Shown: positions 1-59,072 of the stretch, in pieces | Numbering within the stretch: position 1 is the stretch's first letter | Layout of the letters: every line of letters starts with the position of its first letter | From: a virus | Lineage: Duplodnaviria > Caudoviricetes | Virus record (IMG/VR): IMGVR_UViG_2639762749_000010 | Coordinates: 17,974-81,973 of that record | DNA: 64,000 nucleotides | Reading direction: 5' to 3' (one strand) | Notes under the pieces: generated by a model | Database searches by the model: none | Told to the model about the DNA's origin: nothing | The model's input: only the letters and a program-made list of their open reading frames with translations | Position numbers and translations under genes: made by a program

Positions 1-196
1 CAACGTATTCAGCATTGACGCCTTCAAACATCGGGACAGTTTTAGCCGCAGCTAAGATACTATCGTAACGTTCTTGTGGATCGTCGATGAACACACCATC
101 CCTGAACTGTGCATGTGCTGCGAACGAAAGGACTTGTGCAGCGCGTTCATTTACGTCTTTCTGACGCTCTTTGAATTCTTTAATATTATTACTCAC
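1..196 (-). CDS. Major capsid protein, P1 gp23-like (5' part; runs off window)
   Basis: Hand translation from GTG at 196: MSNNIKEFKERQKDVNERAAQVLSFAAHAQFRDGVFIDDPQERYDSILAAAKTVPMFEGV, resembling the recalled P1 gp23 N-terminus. Confidence 0.75.
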   Translation of the reverse strand, partial: MSNNIKEFKERQKDVNERAAQVLSFAAHAQFRDGVFIDDPQERYDSILAAAKTVPMFEGVNAEYV

Positions 197-292
197 CGTA
201 ATGGCCCTTTTCAGAGTGCGAAGATACGGGAGTCAGCTTTTCGACGTGCTTAGGATAGGTTAACTACAATATCCTGCCATAATCCTAACGCC

Positions 293-793
293 GTGTTTTT
301 TTGTATTTTTTCCAAAAAAAATCATTTAGAATTTTCAGCAGTTAGTCTAATTGAGTTAATAGTAAATAAGGAAATTATGAGCTATCGCGTTTACCTGACA
401 TATGACAACGGTCGCCAGAGTCATCTATACTTCACACGCGACAGAAAGGTGATCCATCAACATATTGAATCCGTGTTGACCGATGCTGATTTGCGCGAAA
501 CAGCGAAAGAAATTGTGCTTGAATACAAAAATAGGCTCTTGTTTAGCTTCAGTATGCGTGATGTGGACGATAAAACGATGGGGAAGATCCCTTGGCCGAA
601 GTTGGGTAAGAAGCGCACCTTGAAAACCCCGAAAATTGCGTCTTTGTCGATGCCGACCCAGATGTATGCGTTCTTACAGGAAATAGGGGGAGGAAGTGCC
701 AGTAAGGGGATTCAGGAGATGTGTCTGGAAAAAATGGGCGATAAAGCCCCGATGGATGACATGTTTTACCATTGGCGTGATAGTTCATCATAA
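293..793 (+). CDS. Hypothetical protein (true start probably ATG 377)
   Basis: ORF; AAGGA precedes ATG 377; no family recognised. Confidence 0.55.
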   Translation: MFFCIFSKKNHLEFSAVSLIELIVNKEIMSYRVYLTYDNGRQSHLYFTRDRKVIHQHIESVLTDADLRETAKEIVLEYKNRLLFSFSMRDVDDKTMGKIPWPKLGKKRTLKTPKIASLSMPTQMYAFLQEIGGGSASKGIQEMCLEKMGDKAPMDDMFYHWRDSSS

Positions 794-997
794 GTGCGGG
801 CCGTTAATGGATAAATACTGCAACATGCTCGGCATGGCTCAGGATCACAGCGGATTGAACCGACAGACAAATCTTCCAGCCTAAAATACCGGCTATGATA
901 GAAATGCCCACATGATGATTCAGTTGGTATAGAGTTAACTTTCATGTGTTATATCTACAAAAGCAAATCAGAAAACAACAAAACGAAGGGGCTATAA

Positions 998-5007: not shown

Positions 5008-5920
5008 TCAGCAAGCCACCCATGGCATTAAAAATGATGTTGTAGGCAATGCGTAGCTCATTCACCATTAAGATGAAATCTGCGTATTCGCGGGATAACT
5101 CGTCTTCTTCAGCATTATTTTGCGTTGAAAATTCATCACCAAACTGGAGTTTTTTGAATTTGCATGAATCGGTGAGTTCTAAATCAAATCCGAATTGCGT
5201 CTTAACATGAATGCCAAGTGTGCAAACCTGACGGCCTTGATCTAACAGGATGGATACGGCTTCATCGTTGGTCAGCATATCTTCTTTGTTGAAACGGACT
5301 TCCCCATCGTCATAAATCAGATCGGCTTTTTTTATCTTTTCACTGAGGCGTAATTGGGCCGGAAGGGTATCCGCCTCTTTTAACCAGCCAGTCATCACCC
5401 GTTTAAATGGATTTGCGGTTGCAATAGGGATAACAGGCAGTGAGCCAAGTGTGCGGCGCAAAAGTGCGAGTACATGCTCCGCTGTACGGGGGGAGGTGGT
5501 ATCTATTGAGATTAAACCGTTATCAATGTCAATCCATATTTGAAGGGTACTTCGCTTCGGGAATGCACGAGGTAACAGTTCCTGGATAACGTCATCTTTG
5601 ATTTGAGCTATTTCAGTACGGCGTAACTTGCGACATTGCACAGACTCGAATTTATCACGCTTTGCATGAAGGTGTTCTTTGATAATTGCGGCTGGGAGGT
5701 CTTTACTCTCTCTCTCGGCCACAATAAGCAGGTTATTGCCGTGAACAAACATCGCTGGACGATCATCATCCATCAACCAGCCGATACGGGAAGCATCATG
5801 CGGGCCACAAGGAGAAAAAGCAAAATGCGGAATAAGGGCACGTAATTCATCTTCAGTGAGGTTTGGCACTTCTCGTGATAACTGGTAGATGAGCGCGTTT
5901 TTAAAAACCTTGAACATCAA
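4985..5920 (-). CDS. rdgC: Recombination-associated protein RdgC (P1 HrdC)
   Basis: FKNALIYQL...FSPCG...ELLPRAF...LLRRTLGSLPV RdgC motifs. Confidence 0.9.
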   Translation of the reverse strand: MMFKVFKNALIYQLSREVPNLTEDELRALIPHFAFSPCGPHDASRIGWLMDDDRPAMFVHGNNLLIVAERESKDLPAAIIKEHLHAKRDKFESVQCRKLRRTEIAQIKDDVIQELLPRAFPKRSTLQIWIDIDNGLISIDTTSPRTAEHVLALLRRTLGSLPVIPIATANPFKRVMTGWLKEADTLPAQLRLSEKIKKADLIYDDGEVRFNKEDMLTNDEAVSILLDQGRQVCTLGIHVKTQFGFDLELTDSCKFKKLQFGDEFSTQNNAEEDELSREYADFILMVNELRIAYNIIFNAMGGLLNAGKDNV

Positions 5921-6018
5921 AGTGATACCTATTTAGCCATTTGGGTATCGATTGTAACAAAAATAAAAAAGTATTTAGAATTTTGTGTAATGGTAAAACA
6001 CATAACCATTTTCTTACA

Positions 6019-6073
6019 GTTTACATCTTGTAAACCATGACGCTCAGTGTTACAGTGTTTACATTATGTAAAC
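6019..6073. promoter_or_regulatory. Two palindromic operators upstream of higBA
   Basis: GTTTACATCTTGTAAAC (6019-6035) and GTTTACATTATGTAAAC (6057-6073). Confidence 0.65.
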
Positions 6074-6086
6074 GGAGTGGGTGGGT

Positions 6087-6333
6087 ATGCACGTTATTTC
6101 CAAGGAGCCATTTGATAAAGAATTTTGATAGTCCTATGGAGCTACAAAAACTGTTTCCTCGCCTTGATAATTTTAAATACAGAAATAAATGGTGGGTAAT
6201 AGACATAGGTGGGAACAACTTACGTATGATCGCCTATATCAATTTCACAAATAAACGCTTCTACGTTAAGCACATAGCCACCCACAAAGAGTATGATAAA
6301 TTAACAAAGAAATATCGGGAGACAAAAGAATGA
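6087..6333 (+). pseudogene. higB: HigB toxin with internal deletion/frameshift
   Basis: ATG 6087 gives the typical start MHVISKEPFD then stops; the rest (LDNFKYRNKWWVIDIGGNNLR...HKEYDK) is in another frame. Confidence 0.75.
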
Positions 6334-46700: not shown

Positions 46701-47588
46701 ATGTTACAGTTTGATTTCGGTTCTTCGGATGCTTTTGAGCGAGTTATATCTCAGTTTGAAGAAATGGCTGCGTATGAGGCGTTGTGGTCTGAGAAAGGTG
46801 CGACATTTAAAACCATTGCAGATAAATTTAGGCAAGCTCCTAATACGTTGCCCTCAACGCTGGTTACAAAAAGTGTTCGAGAAGATTTTAAAAGGATGTT
46901 GAGAGAGATTTTTGAACTCTATTCGGTTGATAATTTAGGAATTAGAGTTCATGGAACTAATGAGTATCCTAAAAAATTAAGAGACGCTCAAAATCCAATA
47001 GAAGTTTTTTACTATCAGGGAGGGTGGGATCTAATAAATACTCGCTGCATTTCTGTTATTGGTTCTCGTGAAGTATCTGAGGAAGGGAAACGGAGAACAA
47101 GAAAACTGACTAATTACTTGGTAAATGATGGTTTTACAATTATCTCTGGATTGGCTAAAGGGGTTGATACTGAAGCACATAAAACAGCGCTTGCATTAGG
47201 CGGAAATACAATTGCGGTTATTGGCACCCCTCTTTCTCATTTTTATCCAAAGCAAAATATTGAACTGCAAAAATTTATTAGAAAAAACCATCTCTTAATT
47301 AGTCAAGTTCCGTTTAAATACTATCTGGATAACGATTACAGGACAAACAAATTGTTCTTTCCTGAACGTAATATAACCATGTCCGCATTATCAGAGGCTA
47401 CGGTTATTGTAGAGGCTTCTGATACATCGGGAACGCTGACGCAAGCAAGAGCTGCGCTTAATCAAGGCCGCAAGTTGTTTATACTGGAAAGCTGTTTCAA
47501 AAACAGCTCAATTTATTGGCCTGCAAAGTATGAAGCCAGGGGAGCTATCAGAGTCAGAGATTATCAGGATATCAAGAATTACGTGTGA
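46701..47588 (+). CDS. DprA/Smf (SLOG) family protein
   Basis: VIGSR, ISGLAKGVDTEAH, FPERN..MS, VEASDTSGTL..AR.AL.QGR. Confidence 0.92.
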   Translation: MLQFDFGSSDAFERVISQFEEMAAYEALWSEKGATFKTIADKFRQAPNTLPSTLVTKSVREDFKRMLREIFELYSVDNLGIRVHGTNEYPKKLRDAQNPIEVFYYQGGWDLINTRCISVIGSREVSEEGKRRTRKLTNYLVNDGFTIISGLAKGVDTEAHKTALALGGNTIAVIGTPLSHFYPKQNIELQKFIRKNHLLISQVPFKYYLDNDYRTNKLFFPERNITMSALSEATVIVEASDTSGTLTQARAALNQGRKLFILESCFKNSSIYWPAKYEARGAIRVRDYQDIKNYV

Positions 47589-47730
47589 AAGAAGCGGGAC
47601 TAAAAAATGGCATTAATAATACGCACAGATAACACCATAGCGCCCGTTGACAAAAAGCATTTCGTCGATAAAGGGTACTTCAAACTACTCGCATGACCCA
47701 AAGGATTAATCATTCATTTTTCAATCTATA

Positions 47731-47759
47731 TTGACCTAATTTCTAGGTCATTATATAGT
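47731..47759 (+). promoter_or_regulatory. Sigma70 promoter with overlapping palindromic operator (acr operon)
   Basis: TTGACC-17-TATAGT; inverted repeat TGACCTA-N5-TAGGTCA at 47732-47750. Confidence 0.8.
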
Positions 47760-47817
47760 TAGTACATAGCAAGGGAAACATCCCGGCTTCAATCCGACAA
47801 ACCAAGAGGATTCTACT

Positions 47818-48198
47818 ATGAACAAGTCTCAAATTTTCTCATCCGCTCACAAAATAGCCAAAAACACAGTTGCAACTGTTGGCAACTACATGATTGCTTT
47901 CTCTCTGGCTCTGCGTGATATCTATAGCTCAATGAACAACACTGAAAAAAAATTGCTCTCCATGGGATTCAAGGCATGGGAACGTAACGGTCATCGCCGT
48001 ATCTATATCAACATTGAGCGATTCGAAGAAGTTTTCGGATTGAAAGTCAGTTTCTATAAAACAGGTAATATCAGTTCAGCCAAATTAAATGGTGAGAAAA
48101 TATCTAACTCCAAAGCCTGTGAGTTAATCCCACTGAAAGCGTTTTATGATTGCGTCAATAACGAATGGAACTGCGGCAAACTGAAACCAATTTTCTAA
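47818..48198 (+). CDS. Candidate anti-CRISPR/anti-defence protein
   Basis: First gene of acr-like operon; MNKSQIF..AH N-terminus resembles recalled AcrIF20 start; function by association only. Confidence 0.5.
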   Translation: MNKSQIFSSAHKIAKNTVATVGNYMIAFSLALRDIYSSMNNTEKKLLSMGFKAWERNGHRRIYINIERFEEVFGLKVSFYKTGNISSAKLNGEKISNSKACELIPLKAFYDCVNNEWNCGKLKPIF

Positions 48199-48260
48199 TG
48201 CAACCGAGGTAAGGGGGTTACACCCGACCTACATCCAACAAACAACTAGAGGATTTTGAA

Positions 48261-48461
48261 ATGACTACTATAACTATTAATACCTATGATGTTGCCGGGC
48301 GTTTCGATATGACAAAAGAAGAGGCCAGAAAATGTTTTCAACACGTTGAGACGTTAGCTATTGATGCTAACTATAACGTAGATTACACAGAATCCCTATA
48401 TACAGATGAAGAAAGCGAGAGATTTGTAGAAAAAGCATTCCAAAGTTATTATCCAGAATAA
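48261..48461 (+). CDS. acrIE8: Type I-E anti-CRISPR AcrIE8-like
   Basis: [10 protein letters not shown]...RF.M..EEA...F..VE..A...[14 protein letters not shown] closely matches AcrIE8 as recalled; small and acidic. Confidence 0.8.
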
Positions 48462-48518
48462 ATAAACCAATCCAAATGAAGCCCTGCGTCAGTGGGGCTA
48501 TTTTCATAAGGCGAATCT

Positions 48519-48908
48519 ATGGACAATCGAGAGAAATTAATAAAAGCTGGCGAAATGATTTTTGGCAGCCAATGGCAATCCCCCATGGCTCGCCTATTAG
48601 GGGTGGACTCTCGTGCCGTGCGTCGTTATGTCGCTGGCAATTCCCGCGCCCCCATGACCTACCGATTAGTCGATTCGTTAAAACAAAAAAAACAAGAAAT
48701 TGACGAGGCCATTACGTTAGTCGAATCAGATTTAATATCAGGAGATTGCGTCACGCCAGAATTGATTGAATCGATTGTATCGCGATACACCTATGAGAAC
48801 GATGATCATCGTCAACTGGCAGTGGATGCCATCAAGAAATCAATTTACGAAATGGTTTACCTATCAGACTTAAATCAGATAGCCAAAAAATACTCATCTC
48901 AACAATAA
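48519..48908 (+). CDS. HTH protein, putative Aca-type regulator
   Basis: QWQSPMARLLGVDSRAVRRYVAG HTH; last gene of acr operon. Confidence 0.65.
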   Translation: MDNREKLIKAGEMIFGSQWQSPMARLLGVDSRAVRRYVAGNSRAPMTYRLVDSLKQKKQEIDEAITLVESDLISGDCVTPELIESIVSRYTYENDDHRQLAVDAIKKSIYEMVYLSDLNQIAKKYSSQQ

Positions 48909-48916
48909 GAATACAG

Positions 48917-49298
48917 GAAAAGTCCCCGTCAATACGGGGAACATAAATTAATAATCAATAGAAATGAAAATAAAAGCGGTTCAACCCCGTAAAACGGGGA
49001 AAATAAGTTGATATCCACCAAAAAGACGAATAACAACGGTTCAACCCCGTTTCACGGGGAACATAAGTTGATATCCACCAAAAAGACGAATAAAGATGGT
49101 TCAACCCCGTAAAACGGGGAACGAAATAACAATAAAAGTGAAAATAATAACGGTTTATCCCCGTTTCACGAGGAACGCCATAATCATAAAAATGAAAGTG
49201 GAAATTATAACGGTTTATCCCCGTTTCACGAGGAACGCCATAATCATAAAAATGAAAGTGGAAATTATAACGGTTTATCCCCGTTTCACGAGGAACAC
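48917..49298 (-). CRISPR. Cas-less type I-E-like repeat array, block B (7 repeats; eroded eighth near 49325)
   Basis: 28-nt repeats at 48917, 48977, 49037, 49097, 49151, 49211, 49271; minus strand e.g. GTGTTCCTCGTGAAACGGGGATAAACCG; spacers 32,32,32,26,32,32. Confidence 0.85.
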
Positions 49299-49374
49299 CA
49301 AATTAATCAATTTGAAAATAACAACGACTTATTCCCAATTCCCATTTACATGATGAACAATTATATTATAGCTA

Positions 49375-49626
49375 TTATTCTGATTTCATCCAACCAATTA
49401 ACCCGTCACAAAATTCATCGAACTGTTGATCTGACATTGGCCTGAATCGGGGAACGGTTTCTGCGGTACTATTCCCTGATGCCTGTTTTCTGGCATCAAC
49501 TGCCCGACCCCATCCGTCAATTTGAGATTTAGAATATTTCCCTTGTAAAATATCAAAAATCTCATTGCGATTAAGCCTCAATGCAAGACAGATTCGTCTG
49601 AGATTTTGATTATTTCTTACAGACAT
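49375..49626 (-). CDS. DUF1456/YehS-like protein inside the array
   Basis: NNQNLRRICLAL...SKSQIDGW...MSDQQFDEFCDGLI; AAGGT RBS. Confidence 0.65.
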   Translation of the reverse strand: MSVRNNQNLRRICLALRLNRNEIFDILQGKYSKSQIDGWGRAVDARKQASGNSTAETVPRFRPMSDQQFDEFCDGLIGWMKSE

Positions 49627-49684
49627 AGTGAATTACCTTTTCAACATAATCGAAAGAGCCTTTCTAGCTTAATTTTAGGCCTTT

Positions 49685-49827
49685 AAAGCAATCCCCGTAA
49701 GACGGGGAACATGAGTTGATAATCACTAAAAGTGAAAGCACTACCGGTTTATTCCCGTCGGAACGAGGAACGTTAAAAACGTAATAATCAAAATAATAAC
49801 GGTTAATCCCAGCATGACTGGGAACGC
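49685..49827 (-). CRISPR. Cas-less type I-E-like repeat array, block A (3 repeats)
   Basis: Repeats at 49685-49712, 49745-49773, 49800-49827; spacers 32 and 26 nt. Confidence 0.75.
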
Positions 49828-49832
49828 ATTTA

Positions 49833-49860
49833 ATAATACACAGAAAATTAGTTAACTCAA
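49833..49860 (-). promoter_or_regulatory. Putative promoter for the array and DUF1456 gene
   Basis: Minus strand TTGAGT-16-TATTAT, placing +1 near the first repeat. Confidence 0.45.
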
Positions 49861-50090
49861 ATGCAAGTTAATTTTTTTTGACTCAAATCACTAAACCCCA
49901 GAGCCATTTGCTCTGGGATGGCAGTATGTTACCTCATCCAGTTTTAACTCTTCTTTGCCATCCATATCACCCCACAAAAACCATCAACACAGCGTGATTA
50001 TAAATATTAAAAGTTAAAAATTCCGAATAAAGTCAGTATCTTTAGATAAAAATGCCAAGAAAGTAAAATGGCACTTTATTTCAAGGCTGA

Positions 50091-50294: not shown

Positions 50295-50487
50295 GATGGT
50301 AATCGCTCTGTAATGGTAAAAAAATCACCACCAGAGAGGTTCCAATCTCTGATTGGTGGTGAGCTGAACGGAGTTGGAACTACCGGCCATTACAGCTACG
50401 GCGATTACCGAGGCAAACACTAATCCGGCCAACCTTGCGGTTGCTCCGCCCCGCCCACCATAAATTGGATGTGCATAGGCATGACAC

Positions 50488-50566
50488 AAAAAAAAGACGC
50501 AAGCGCGTCTGTGTCGCTGTAATGGTTATCGGGGTTCCAATCCCGACAGTAGGATTTACTACTGCC
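50488..50566 (-). ncRNA. c4: c4 antisense RNA
   Basis: GGCAGTAGTAAATCCTACTGTCGGGATTGGAACCCCGATAACCATTACAGC...; complementary targets at about 50373-50396; TTGACA at 50596-50601. Confidence 0.75.
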
Positions 50567-57648: not shown

Positions 57649-57905
57649 ACCCAATTAGAATACACTGGTTGCTGGCTTGACTCGCTAAGGCAGTGAAAGT
57701 GTACTCTAATTGGGTTTACATAAAGAGTCAGGTTAGGTGGTGTATTCTAATTGGGTTTAGCATAAAGAGTCAGGGTTAGGTGGTGTATTCTAATTGGGTT
57801 TAATAATAAGACACTGGTCACATAGCACACTCTAGTTAAGTAACTAAAACCAAATCAGCTTAAAAAGCAACCGAAAAAAATACAGTAACCTAATTAGGAT
57901 ACACC
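57649..57905. repeat. incA-like copy-control iterons in both orientations
   Basis: ACCCAATTAGAATACAC variants at 57649, 57699, 57739, 57782, 57888. Confidence 0.85.
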
Positions 57906-58826: not shown

Positions 58827-58853
58827 AATTTAGTCCACATTTTGTTATTTCAA

Positions 58854-59072
58854 ACCCAATTAGAATACACCCAGACACCCAATTAGAATACACCAAAAAC
58901 CCAATTAGAATACACCAAAAACCCAATTAGAATACACCAGAACCCAATTAGAATACACCCGATTCACTCGTAAGCCTGATTATAAAAGGGCTGTAGATGC
59001 ACGGGATCTTTTAAAGGTACTTTTGGTAGTTAAGGATCTTGTTATTGGATCTACCCTGTGGATTTGTGGATA
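58854..59072. repeat. Plasmid origin: 5 iterons, GATC cluster, DnaA boxes
   Basis: ACCCAATTAGAATACACC at 58854, 58877, 58899, 58921, 58942; three GGATCT; TGTGGATTTGTGGATAA near 59057-59072. Confidence 0.9.

Follow-up and report, generated by a model that had tools for sequence, protein, structure and literature searches.

An AcrIE8 operon converging on a candidate Cracr-type array in a P1/D6-like virus

What purpose could a series of CRISPR-like hairpin repeats serve on a viral element, beside an operon encoding an inhibitor of the same CRISPR subtype? This question is raised by a locus in the window analysed here, a stretch of 64,000 nucleotides (nt) that forms the final 64 kb of the 81,973-base IMG/VR virus record IMGVR_UViG_2639762749_000010, a P1/D6-like virus on which the locus lies outside any CRISPR-Cas locus. 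The sequence-only reading of this DNA had described a promoter- and operator-led three-gene operon converging on about ten type I-E hairpin repeats, with no cas (CRISPR-associated) genes, and had taken the repeats for a set of decoy CRISPR RNAs (crRNAs). The analysis reported here suggests a more specific function. The minus strand of 48917-49860 probably constitutes a viral Cracr-type array, which would mimic a CreR/CreA-like RNA of the host, silence the host cas promoter and cooperate with the anti-CRISPR (Acr) protein AcrIE8.

The minus strand of 48917-49827 contains ten hairpin units and one decayed remnant in the type I-E repeat frame (Table 1). The complete frame, GTGTTCC followed by a stem-loop and ATAAACCG, is kept by U5-U7 and U9, and the local hairpins of the units range from -7 to -12 kcal/mol. 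Tandem Repeats Finder recognised two blocks with a period of 60, at 48924-49122 (3.3 copies, 82% matches, score 254) and at 49126-49300 (2.9 copies, 95% matches, score 315), and a repeat search returned families of seven to eight copies at 60/54-nt spacing with outliers at 49702-49846. Across the 81,973-base record, a 13-nt piece of the unit with at most one mismatch was found four times in the forward direction and not once in reverse or as a reversed-pattern control. The units are organised in two sub-arrays, A and B, with nine spacer slots holding eight distinct spacers, as S6 equals S7; five of the nine are 32 nt long, one is 31 nt and three are 26 nt. All spacers are T-rich and mutually related, and S3 and S4 agree at 24 of their first 26 nt. 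At the ends of the sub-arrays, U8 and U1 are degenerate terminal repeats without the 8-nt handle, followed by a T-rich tail, and both score as terminator-like. A promoter-like site is found 5' of each sub-array, and the one directly 5' of U10 aligns with the equivalent stretch 5' of the array in a related element (L070), which argues weakly for its relevance.

The locus is thus neither a bona fide CRISPR array, as its repeats vary by unit, its spacers are related or duplicated and no cas family was found, nor a solitary RNA anti-CRISPR (Racr) without another repeat within ~100 bp, as the units lie 54-60 nt apart. Searches for PF08798 (Cas6e), PF09481 (Cse1) and PF09344 (Cas7e) gave no match in the record, in line with the reported lack of cas genes; CheckV estimates this record as 83% complete, so that the absence of cas genes from the full element is not proven. 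Rfam likewise returned no CRISPR family and, at the E-value threshold, only chance-level rows in the array region. It was also observed that units with the loop UUUU (U2 and U4) are near reverse complements of units with the loop GAAA (U3 and U5-U7), giving inverted repeats within 48985-49293, and the array RNA could thus form long inter-unit duplexes. The global fold of sub-array B (z -7.1) pairs the units with one another and is uninformative on the local hairpins.

Which host would such repeats imitate? An order-level scan for the repeat pattern detected type I-E arrays in 24 of 401 genomes and led to G112, a member of a genus represented by 36 genomes. This genus is taken as Xenorhabdus because three of the 36 genomes carry a homologue of gene 3 of the adjoining operon (65-67% identity), and Xenorhabdus, a genus of insect pathogens, is on sequence grounds most likely the host. 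Type I-E arrays occur in 26 of the 36 genomes, with a 29-nt repeat whose flanks, stem and 8-nt handle are the same as in U5-U7 and U9. The comparison with the host I-E repeat that had been proposed as a check thus came out in favour of imitation, apart from the loop, which is considered below.

In addition, many genomes of the genus contain, 5' of cas3, a unit conserved across species, made up of a repeat, a 32-nt spacer (26 nt in G112) and a degenerate repeat; it is either solitary or closes the cas-proximal array (host loci L062-L069 and L074-L103). A study of X. griffiniae mentions such a conserved repeat-spacer-degenerate-repeat element. The spacer of this unit matches a site flanked by a protospacer-adjacent motif (PAM) in 8 of 12 hosts, with 7/7 seed positions, an AAG or ATG PAM and a run of 8-15 nt when matched without gaps and ignoring every sixth position. 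The position of the site is constant, 572-629 nt ahead of the glyoxalase gene and tens of nt 5' of a string of packed or overlapping genes encoding HTH_Tnp_1 and glyoxalase-family proteins, Cas3, Cas8e and Cas11, the last identified by Pfam Cse2 (E 1.8e-20). It overlaps promoter-like hexamers, which are not above chance. This architecture matches that reported for CreR of Salmonella type I-E, where the match spans 15 consecutive nt of a site next to an AAG PAM, upstream of casA (bioRxiv 10.1101/2023.03.10.532045), and we therefore infer that the host terminal unit is a CreR/CreA-like regulatory guide. The shared features are the order of repeat, spacer and degenerate repeat and the partial PAM-proximal complementarity upstream of cas next to an AAG PAM. 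Unlike the CreR/CreA elements described in that preprint, the Xenorhabdus element, of predicted function, is terminal in the cas-proximal array or alone upstream of cas3, and the promoter region targeted would first drive the HTH_Tnp_1 and glyoxalase-family genes.

The evidence that carries the proposed function lies in the phage spacers, which resemble this host spacer. Against 14 host regulatory spacers, S3 agrees at 28/32 positions, S4 at 26/32, S2 at 25/32, S5 at 22/26, S7b at 21/26 and S9 at 22/31, and none of 5000 shuffles reached the scores of these six of the eight distinct spacers; S10 is borderline with 19/26 (58 of 5000 shuffles). For comparison, the best of 142 T-rich 32-mers taken from elsewhere in the window scored 22 against an earlier set of ten host spacers. 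The identity is greater PAM-proximally, with 84/96 nt (88%) at positions 1-12 vs 98/141 (70%) beyond. Four of the eight distinct spacers share with a host spacer at least the nine consecutive PAM-proximal nt expected of Cracrs (S5, 19; S7b, 12; S3, 12; S10, 10), while S9, S7/S6, S4 and S2 share fewer. The same four, S10, S7b, S5 and S3, match in silico the sites addressed by the host spacers, with 7/7 seed positions, runs of 8-12 nt and an AAG or ATG PAM, and for these spacers a run of 8 is attained at none of the 2010 remaining PAM-flanked sites of those regions. Because these four spacers match host sites with full seeds, and are thus predicted to be partly complementary to a PAM-flanked site of the cas/creT promoter type, the locus falls within the published working definition of a Cracr. 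Matches of the phage spacers to five cas8e loci were at chance level only, consistent with a target located 5' of cas3 rather than of cas8e. In the phage record itself, seed-like runs of 9-13 nt were found, none with an AAG or ATG PAM among the three best matches per spacer.

Facing the array on the plus strand are three open reading frames (ORFs), which bear out the operon described from the sequence. The second encodes a clear homologue of AcrIE8, as earlier suggested, with residues 1-64 of its 66 matching the PDB entry 9VX9; this is the AcrIE8.1 entry, and AcrIE8.1 is reported to bind Cas11 (Kang and Park 2025, PMC12883894). The 13 database homologues of the protein, from Salmonella and Klebsiella among others, are 54-62% identical, and a copy with 65% identity is located 5' of a gene 3 homologue in L036/L070. 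The third gene fits an anti-CRISPR-associated (Aca) regulator with its own candidate operator: a predicted helix-turn-helix (HTH) protein encoded directly 3' of an acr gene, with a palindrome in the operon promoter, through which repression is predicted. The palindrome is a 12-nt inverted repeat with a 5-nt gap overlapping the promoter-like site, and the same inverted repeat is found in the Xenorhabdus locus L034 (2155-2183), directly 5' of a pair of a small ORF and an aca homologue. The structural model of gene 3 has a predicted local distance difference test score (pLDDT) of 92.1, and its residues 1-56 resemble Aca10 (Z 6.0, root-mean-square deviation (rmsd) 2.6, 53 aligned), the 434 repressor (Z 5.0) and Aca2 (Z 4.8), all middling Z values. 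It has no Pfam match and is not tied to any numbered Aca, and its named homologues are restricted to four Xenorhabdus and one Pectobacterium. In all three loci examined in the probable host genus, the gene 3 homologue is preceded by a small ORF, which in L036 encodes an AcrIE8 homologue, and in L034 and L035 an unrelated protein of 70-92 amino acids (aa). Finally, the first gene is of no assigned function and may encode an anti-defence protein. It has no Pfam match; only its N-terminal 40 aa match PHROG 12732 (E 2.3e-8), and a language-model search pointed to Phage_Gp111-like clusters (0.94), which is a lead only. A homologue of gene 1 leads an array-converging operon in a related element (L072, identical to the IMG/VR contig L104).

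Directly 3' of the aca homologue, three elements of the probable host genus were also seen to encode a Cas8e-like protein of 425-428 aa (Pfam CRISPR_Cse1, E 2.2e-10, above the cut-off), at L034:206-1492 (-), L035:215-1492 (-) and L036:1025-1492 (-) plus 60-809 (-). In L036 the gene is split, and this split gene is the same DNA as L070:6456-6923 and 5491-6240. The protein is shorter than the 538-540-aa Cas8e of the hosts and may be a protein decoy of this Cascade subunit.

How might the array and the operon act together? The two promoter-led mini-arrays, with two and seven spacer slots and each ending in a degenerate terminal repeat, would provide RNAs whose repeats imitate the host type I-E repeat and whose spacers imitate the last spacer of the host cas-proximal array. 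Host Cas6e and Cascade would load these RNAs, drawing Cas proteins off the immune crRNAs, and the seed-matching units would park Cascade on the host promoter so that the cas operon stays shut, and the spacer variants would serve to cover a range of host strains or species. The converging operon would meanwhile supply AcrIE8 to block Cascade through Cas11. AcrIE8 is reported to relieve CreR autorepression, raising P_casA activity up to ~30-fold in E. coli (bioRxiv 10.1101/2023.03.10.532045), and an RNA re-imposing repression beside acrIE8 would thus make functional sense, as the array could cancel the cas rebound caused by the protein.

Several observations weigh against this interpretation. 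Of the ten phage hairpin units, nine have a length of 28 nt and a loop 1 nt shorter than that of the host. In 75 partly overlapping host loci comprising 281,692 bases, a 4-nt insert is present in all 355 repeats possessing that stem, and the handle variant of U2-U4 occurs 0 times vs 324 canonical handles. Loss of 1 nt from the loop of one repeat-like unit was accompanied by poor Cas6 processing (bioRxiv 10.1101/2024.10.29.618823), and by analogy the phage units may be cut badly by Cas6e. The phage spacers (26-32 nt) are not shorter than those of the host (32 or 26 nt), unlike in the published type I-F case. The likeness of S7/S6 to host spacers is not significant (19/32, reached by ~7% of shuffles), and S9, S7=S6, S4 and S2 have no seed-matched PAM site in 29 host upstream regions taken from species representatives; these spacers may be of use in strains outside the sample, or be competitors only. 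Likewise, 4 of 12 hosts (G443, G440, G431 and G425) lack a good self-target by ungapped matching, and the regulatory role of the host unit is assigned by analogy. The promoter-like sites are no commoner than in shuffled sequence (10 vs 9.0 +/- 3.2), and the host is a presumed one, the record representing a contig of an uncultivated virus.

Because of the shorter loop, the handle variant and the published poor processing, a sponge-like mode of action is a serious rival or an additional mode. As a pure decoy, the units would resemble Racrs in binding Cas6e, and perhaps Cas7 and Cas5, while being badly cut or assembled, and the spacer likeness would reflect the origin of the units by copying. This would also account for the half of the distinct spacers without a predicted target, and type I-E and I-F Racrs are reported to inhibit by repeat mimicry and often adjoin acr genes (PMC10651486). 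Yet a pure sponge would need neither the better conservation of the 12 PAM-proximal nt nor the perfect seeds that four spacers keep against PAM-flanked host sites. The published Racrs are, moreover, solitary, and repeats within 100 bp of one another were set aside as arrays by the finder used (PMC10651486). A purely sponge-like function is on balance unlikely.

An extension of the Cracr-type interpretation could be speculated to be a three-layer anti-I-E device. In this device, AcrIE8 would disable immune Cascade through Cas11, the multiplexed regulator-mimic array would hold the cas promoter of many Xenorhabdus strains closed and so prevent the host from responding with additional Cas protein, and an 83-aa protein encoded between the sub-arrays would be devoted to the RNA array as its regulator or co-factor, a hitherto unrecognised 'Aca for RNA anti-CRISPRs'. 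In its boldest form, the 26-nt spacers, one 6-nt Cas7 step shorter, would build a shortened Cascade escaping AcrIE8, like the short Cracr spacers reported to escape AcrIF24 in type I-F (bioRxiv 10.1101/2024.10.29.618823). Such a device is a rather doubtful proposition. It is very improbable that the units represent a passenger, i.e., a decaying host CRISPR remnant without RNA function, or an element acting as DNA, for instance as repeats bound by proteins or as terminators. The terminator-like scores of U1 and U8, the long-range pairing of units and the inverted repeats would suit it, yet four elements carry the module together with one and the same partner gene, beside candidate anti-defence operons, the seeds are kept while the distal parts drift, and tandem amplification with diversification is unlike decay. 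Least credible of all is an ordinary orphan mini-CRISPR array borrowing host Cas proteins to attack rival elements or host genes, for although the type I-E geometry (28-29-nt repeats, mostly 32-nt spacers) and the degenerate repeat ending each sub-array would fit, the spacers are interrelated and resemble the conserved spacer of the host itself, the repeats vary between units, the record lacks matches to the three Cas families searched and the adjoining operon codes for an inhibitor of type I-E. As identities of the units, an ordinary CRISPR array, iterons and terminators had also been considered and were rejected on the evidence against these rivals.

Table 1. Features of the acr-aca operon and the facing repeat array, with positions in the 64,000-nt window.
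Feature	Position	Strand	Details
Promoter-like site and candidate Aca operator	47727-47759	+	TTGACC-17-TATAGT, 10/12, at 47731-47759; inverted repeat at 47727-47755
Gene 1, no assigned function, candidate anti-defence protein	47818-48198	+	126 aa; first gene of the operon
Gene 2, AcrIE8 homologue	48261-48461	+	66 aa; PDB 9vx9_A, E 9.5e-20; PHROG 32723, E 3.7e-25
Gene 3, Aca-like regulator	48519-48908	+	129 aa; N-terminal XRE-type HTH in the model
Hairpin unit U1	48917-48944	-	
Hairpin unit U2	48977-49004	-	
Hairpin unit U3	49037-49064	-	
Hairpin unit U4	49097-49124	-	
Hairpin unit U5	49151-49178	-	
Hairpin unit U6	49211-49238	-	
Hairpin unit U7	49271-49298	-	
U7b	49325-49352	-	Remnant without hairpin
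Sub-array B	48917-49352	-	5' to 3': U7b, S7b (26 nt), U7, S7 (32 nt), U6, S6 (32 nt), U5, S5 (26 nt), U4, S4 (32 nt), U3, S3 (32 nt), U2, S2 (32 nt), U1
Promoter-like site	49360-49389	-	ATGAAA-18-TATAAT, 10/12; between the embedded gene and sub-array B; consensus match only
Small XRE-HTH-like protein gene	49375-49626	-	83 aa; separates sub-arrays A and B
Hairpin unit U8	49686-49713	-	
Hairpin unit U9	49745-49773	-	29 nt
Hairpin unit U10	49800-49827	-	
Sub-array A	49686-49827	-	5' to 3': U10, S10 (26 nt), U9 (29 nt), S9 (31 nt), U8
Promoter-like site	49833-49860	-	TTGAGT-16-TATTAT, 9/12; directly 5' of U10

The most original feature of the locus is the conserved XRE-like gene inside the array. 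Copies of this 83-aa gene are present in L070, L071 and L072 (60-81% identity), each beside or inside an array, and in all four carrier elements, including the one described here, the gene comes directly after an array. The order of array, gene and array in L070 is like that of the window, with units flanking the gene on both sides, and this module is located 3' of acrIE8-aca and the split Cas8e-like gene. The search of relatives that had been suggested did reveal, in L070, a linkage of acrIE8 and such arrays. A single database homologue of the protein was found (P0022, 81% identity, source label Xenorhabdus sp.). The sequence-only reading had labelled the ORF as DUF1456 (PF07308), a label that falls away, as the match reaches 22.2 bits (E 1.6e-4) and the Pfam cut-off is 27. 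Instead, the model of the protein (pLDDT 80.9) is similar along its length to XRE-type HTH domains: its top 50 structural matches are nearly all of this type, with middling Z values of 5.5-7.4, and Aca10 is aligned over 57 residues (Z 7.1, rmsd 2.2). Based on this model, the protein is perhaps a small DNA-binding partner of the array and perhaps its regulator. The part of the earlier claim that such an array with an embedded gene had not been described holds to the extent that neither a gene-interrupted array nor an HTH partner was found in the main text of the Cracr preprint (bioRxiv 10.1101/2024.10.29.618823).

It was further observed that a conserved pair of genes encoding ~70 and ~120 aa converges on the module of array and HTH gene in three elements, at L070:3967-4587 (+), L071:3459-4098 (+) and L072:3162-3878 (-). 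The copies in L072 have no Pfam match, and the pair may represent a further acr-aca-like operon.

To what extent is such a locus new? Viral arrays of several crRNA-like units are already on record, as is their cooperation with Acr proteins: Liu et al. (bioRxiv 10.1101/2024.10.29.618823) report 30 viral arrays of 2-3 spacers, 20 of them of type I-E, and synergy of Acr and RNA for type I-F. The multi-unit part of the earlier suggestion, that no multi-unit decoy array with an embedded gene had been described, is thus overtaken. The decoy proposal itself stands in so far as the island pairs a protein with an RNA against type I-E, with cas-less crRNA look-alikes beside acrIE8, and needs refinement in so far as the units are more than generic decoys for titrating Cascade, their spacers copying the host regulatory spacer. 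As in the Cracr arrays of that preprint, the array is cas-less and located on a phage with an acr gene linked to it, its units copy the host repeat in flanks, stem and 8-nt handle, several variants are assembled in one array, and its spacers imitate a regulatory spacer of the host and have a PAM-flanked match in the cas promoter. The preprint also puts forward the idea that a single Cracr array takes care of the variants which one subtype shows among related strains, an idea that the multi-variant layout of the present array fits. Unlike the 30 published arrays with their 2-3 spacers, the array described here has nine slots (eight distinct spacers), is split by a conserved protein gene and contains spacers of 26-32 nt that are not shortened, and the loop of most of its units falls 1 nt short of that in the host repeat. 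Its linkage is to acrIE8-aca, whereas the published synergy concerns AcrIF24 and type I-F; the term 'AcrIE' occurs 0 times in the text of the preprint, and neither Xenorhabdus nor phage-plasmids are mentioned in its main text. With the Racrs described by Camara-Wilpert et al. 2023 (PMC10651486), including RacrIE1 and RacrIE2, the units share repeat mimicry by a mobile element and co-location with acr genes. They differ from these in being arrayed and in having spacers with conserved seeds, while the Racrs reported there are solitary and lack meaningful spacers. Finally, the operon resembles described acr-aca operons with AcrIE8 in the order of a small acr and an HTH gene and in the palindromic operator in the promoter (Pinilla-Redondo et al. 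2020, PMC7648647; PMC12883894), yet differs from these in an Aca without a Pfam family, an extra first gene and the convergence on an RNA array. New in this locus are thus the size of nine slots in two sub-arrays, the acrIE8-aca linkage, the conserved 83-aa gene within the array and the P1-like phage-plasmid carrier.

If the proposed function holds, Cracr counter-defence would extend to a far larger multiplex, with one phage-plasmid carrying guides for many host variants. The locus would also be a natural type I-E case in which a cas-derepressing Acr protein is encoded beside RNA able to cancel the derepression, and the conserved small HTH protein would add to such RNA loci a new component open to testing. 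Moreover, the last cas-proximal spacer of the host would be a conserved self-regulatory guide, which bears on the control of type I-E systems in insect-pathogenic nematode symbionts. The compact units could serve as natural parts for CRISPR interference tools.

What kind of element carries the locus, and where in it? The portal protein of the record is 91.7% identical to that encoded on the megaplasmid of Xenorhabdus bovienii CS03, 56.7% to that of phage D6 and 45.8% to that of P1, and all remaining 682 plasmid records show less than 60% portal identity. In the CS03 megaplasmid, the stretch behind the portal-neighbour gene measures only ~1 kb and lacks such an island, with the equivalence of the flanking genes judged by order and length only. 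Hence the island appears, from this comparison, to occupy a variable slot of a P1/D6-like phage-plasmid. Searches aimed at finding the locus elsewhere gave little. No match was found by blastn of 47600-50000 against plasmids and phages, and a portal protein search gave 0 matches in 17 genomes of the G001 family. The Aca homologue was found in 0 of 401 genomes of the order-level sample, which consists of sampled genomes and is thus no evidence of absence; among viral contigs, the Aca protein had no relative and the unit pattern gave 0 stretches. A scan of genome contigs for the 28-nt repeat form returned 20 stretches and pointed to no host, as true arrays with a 60-nt period were present in only two uncultured genomes, with different loops.

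Some neighbouring features are of interest in their own right. About 500 nt past the array, Rfam detected, at the gathering threshold, adjacent C4 antisense RNA (64.7 bits) and isrK (68 bits) elements at 50352-50565 (-), which we take to be parts of the P1/P7 immunity region (P1-type immI). Immediately 5' of the acr operon, in the same variable slot, lies a DprA/Smf-like gene at 46701-47588 (+) (Pfam DNA_processg_A, E 1.9e-55). Further downstream, Tandem Repeats Finder identified blocks at 57699-57806 (43 nt x 2.6) and 58852-58959 (22 nt x 4.9), whose consensus units look like near reverse complements of one another and may be iterons or partition sites.

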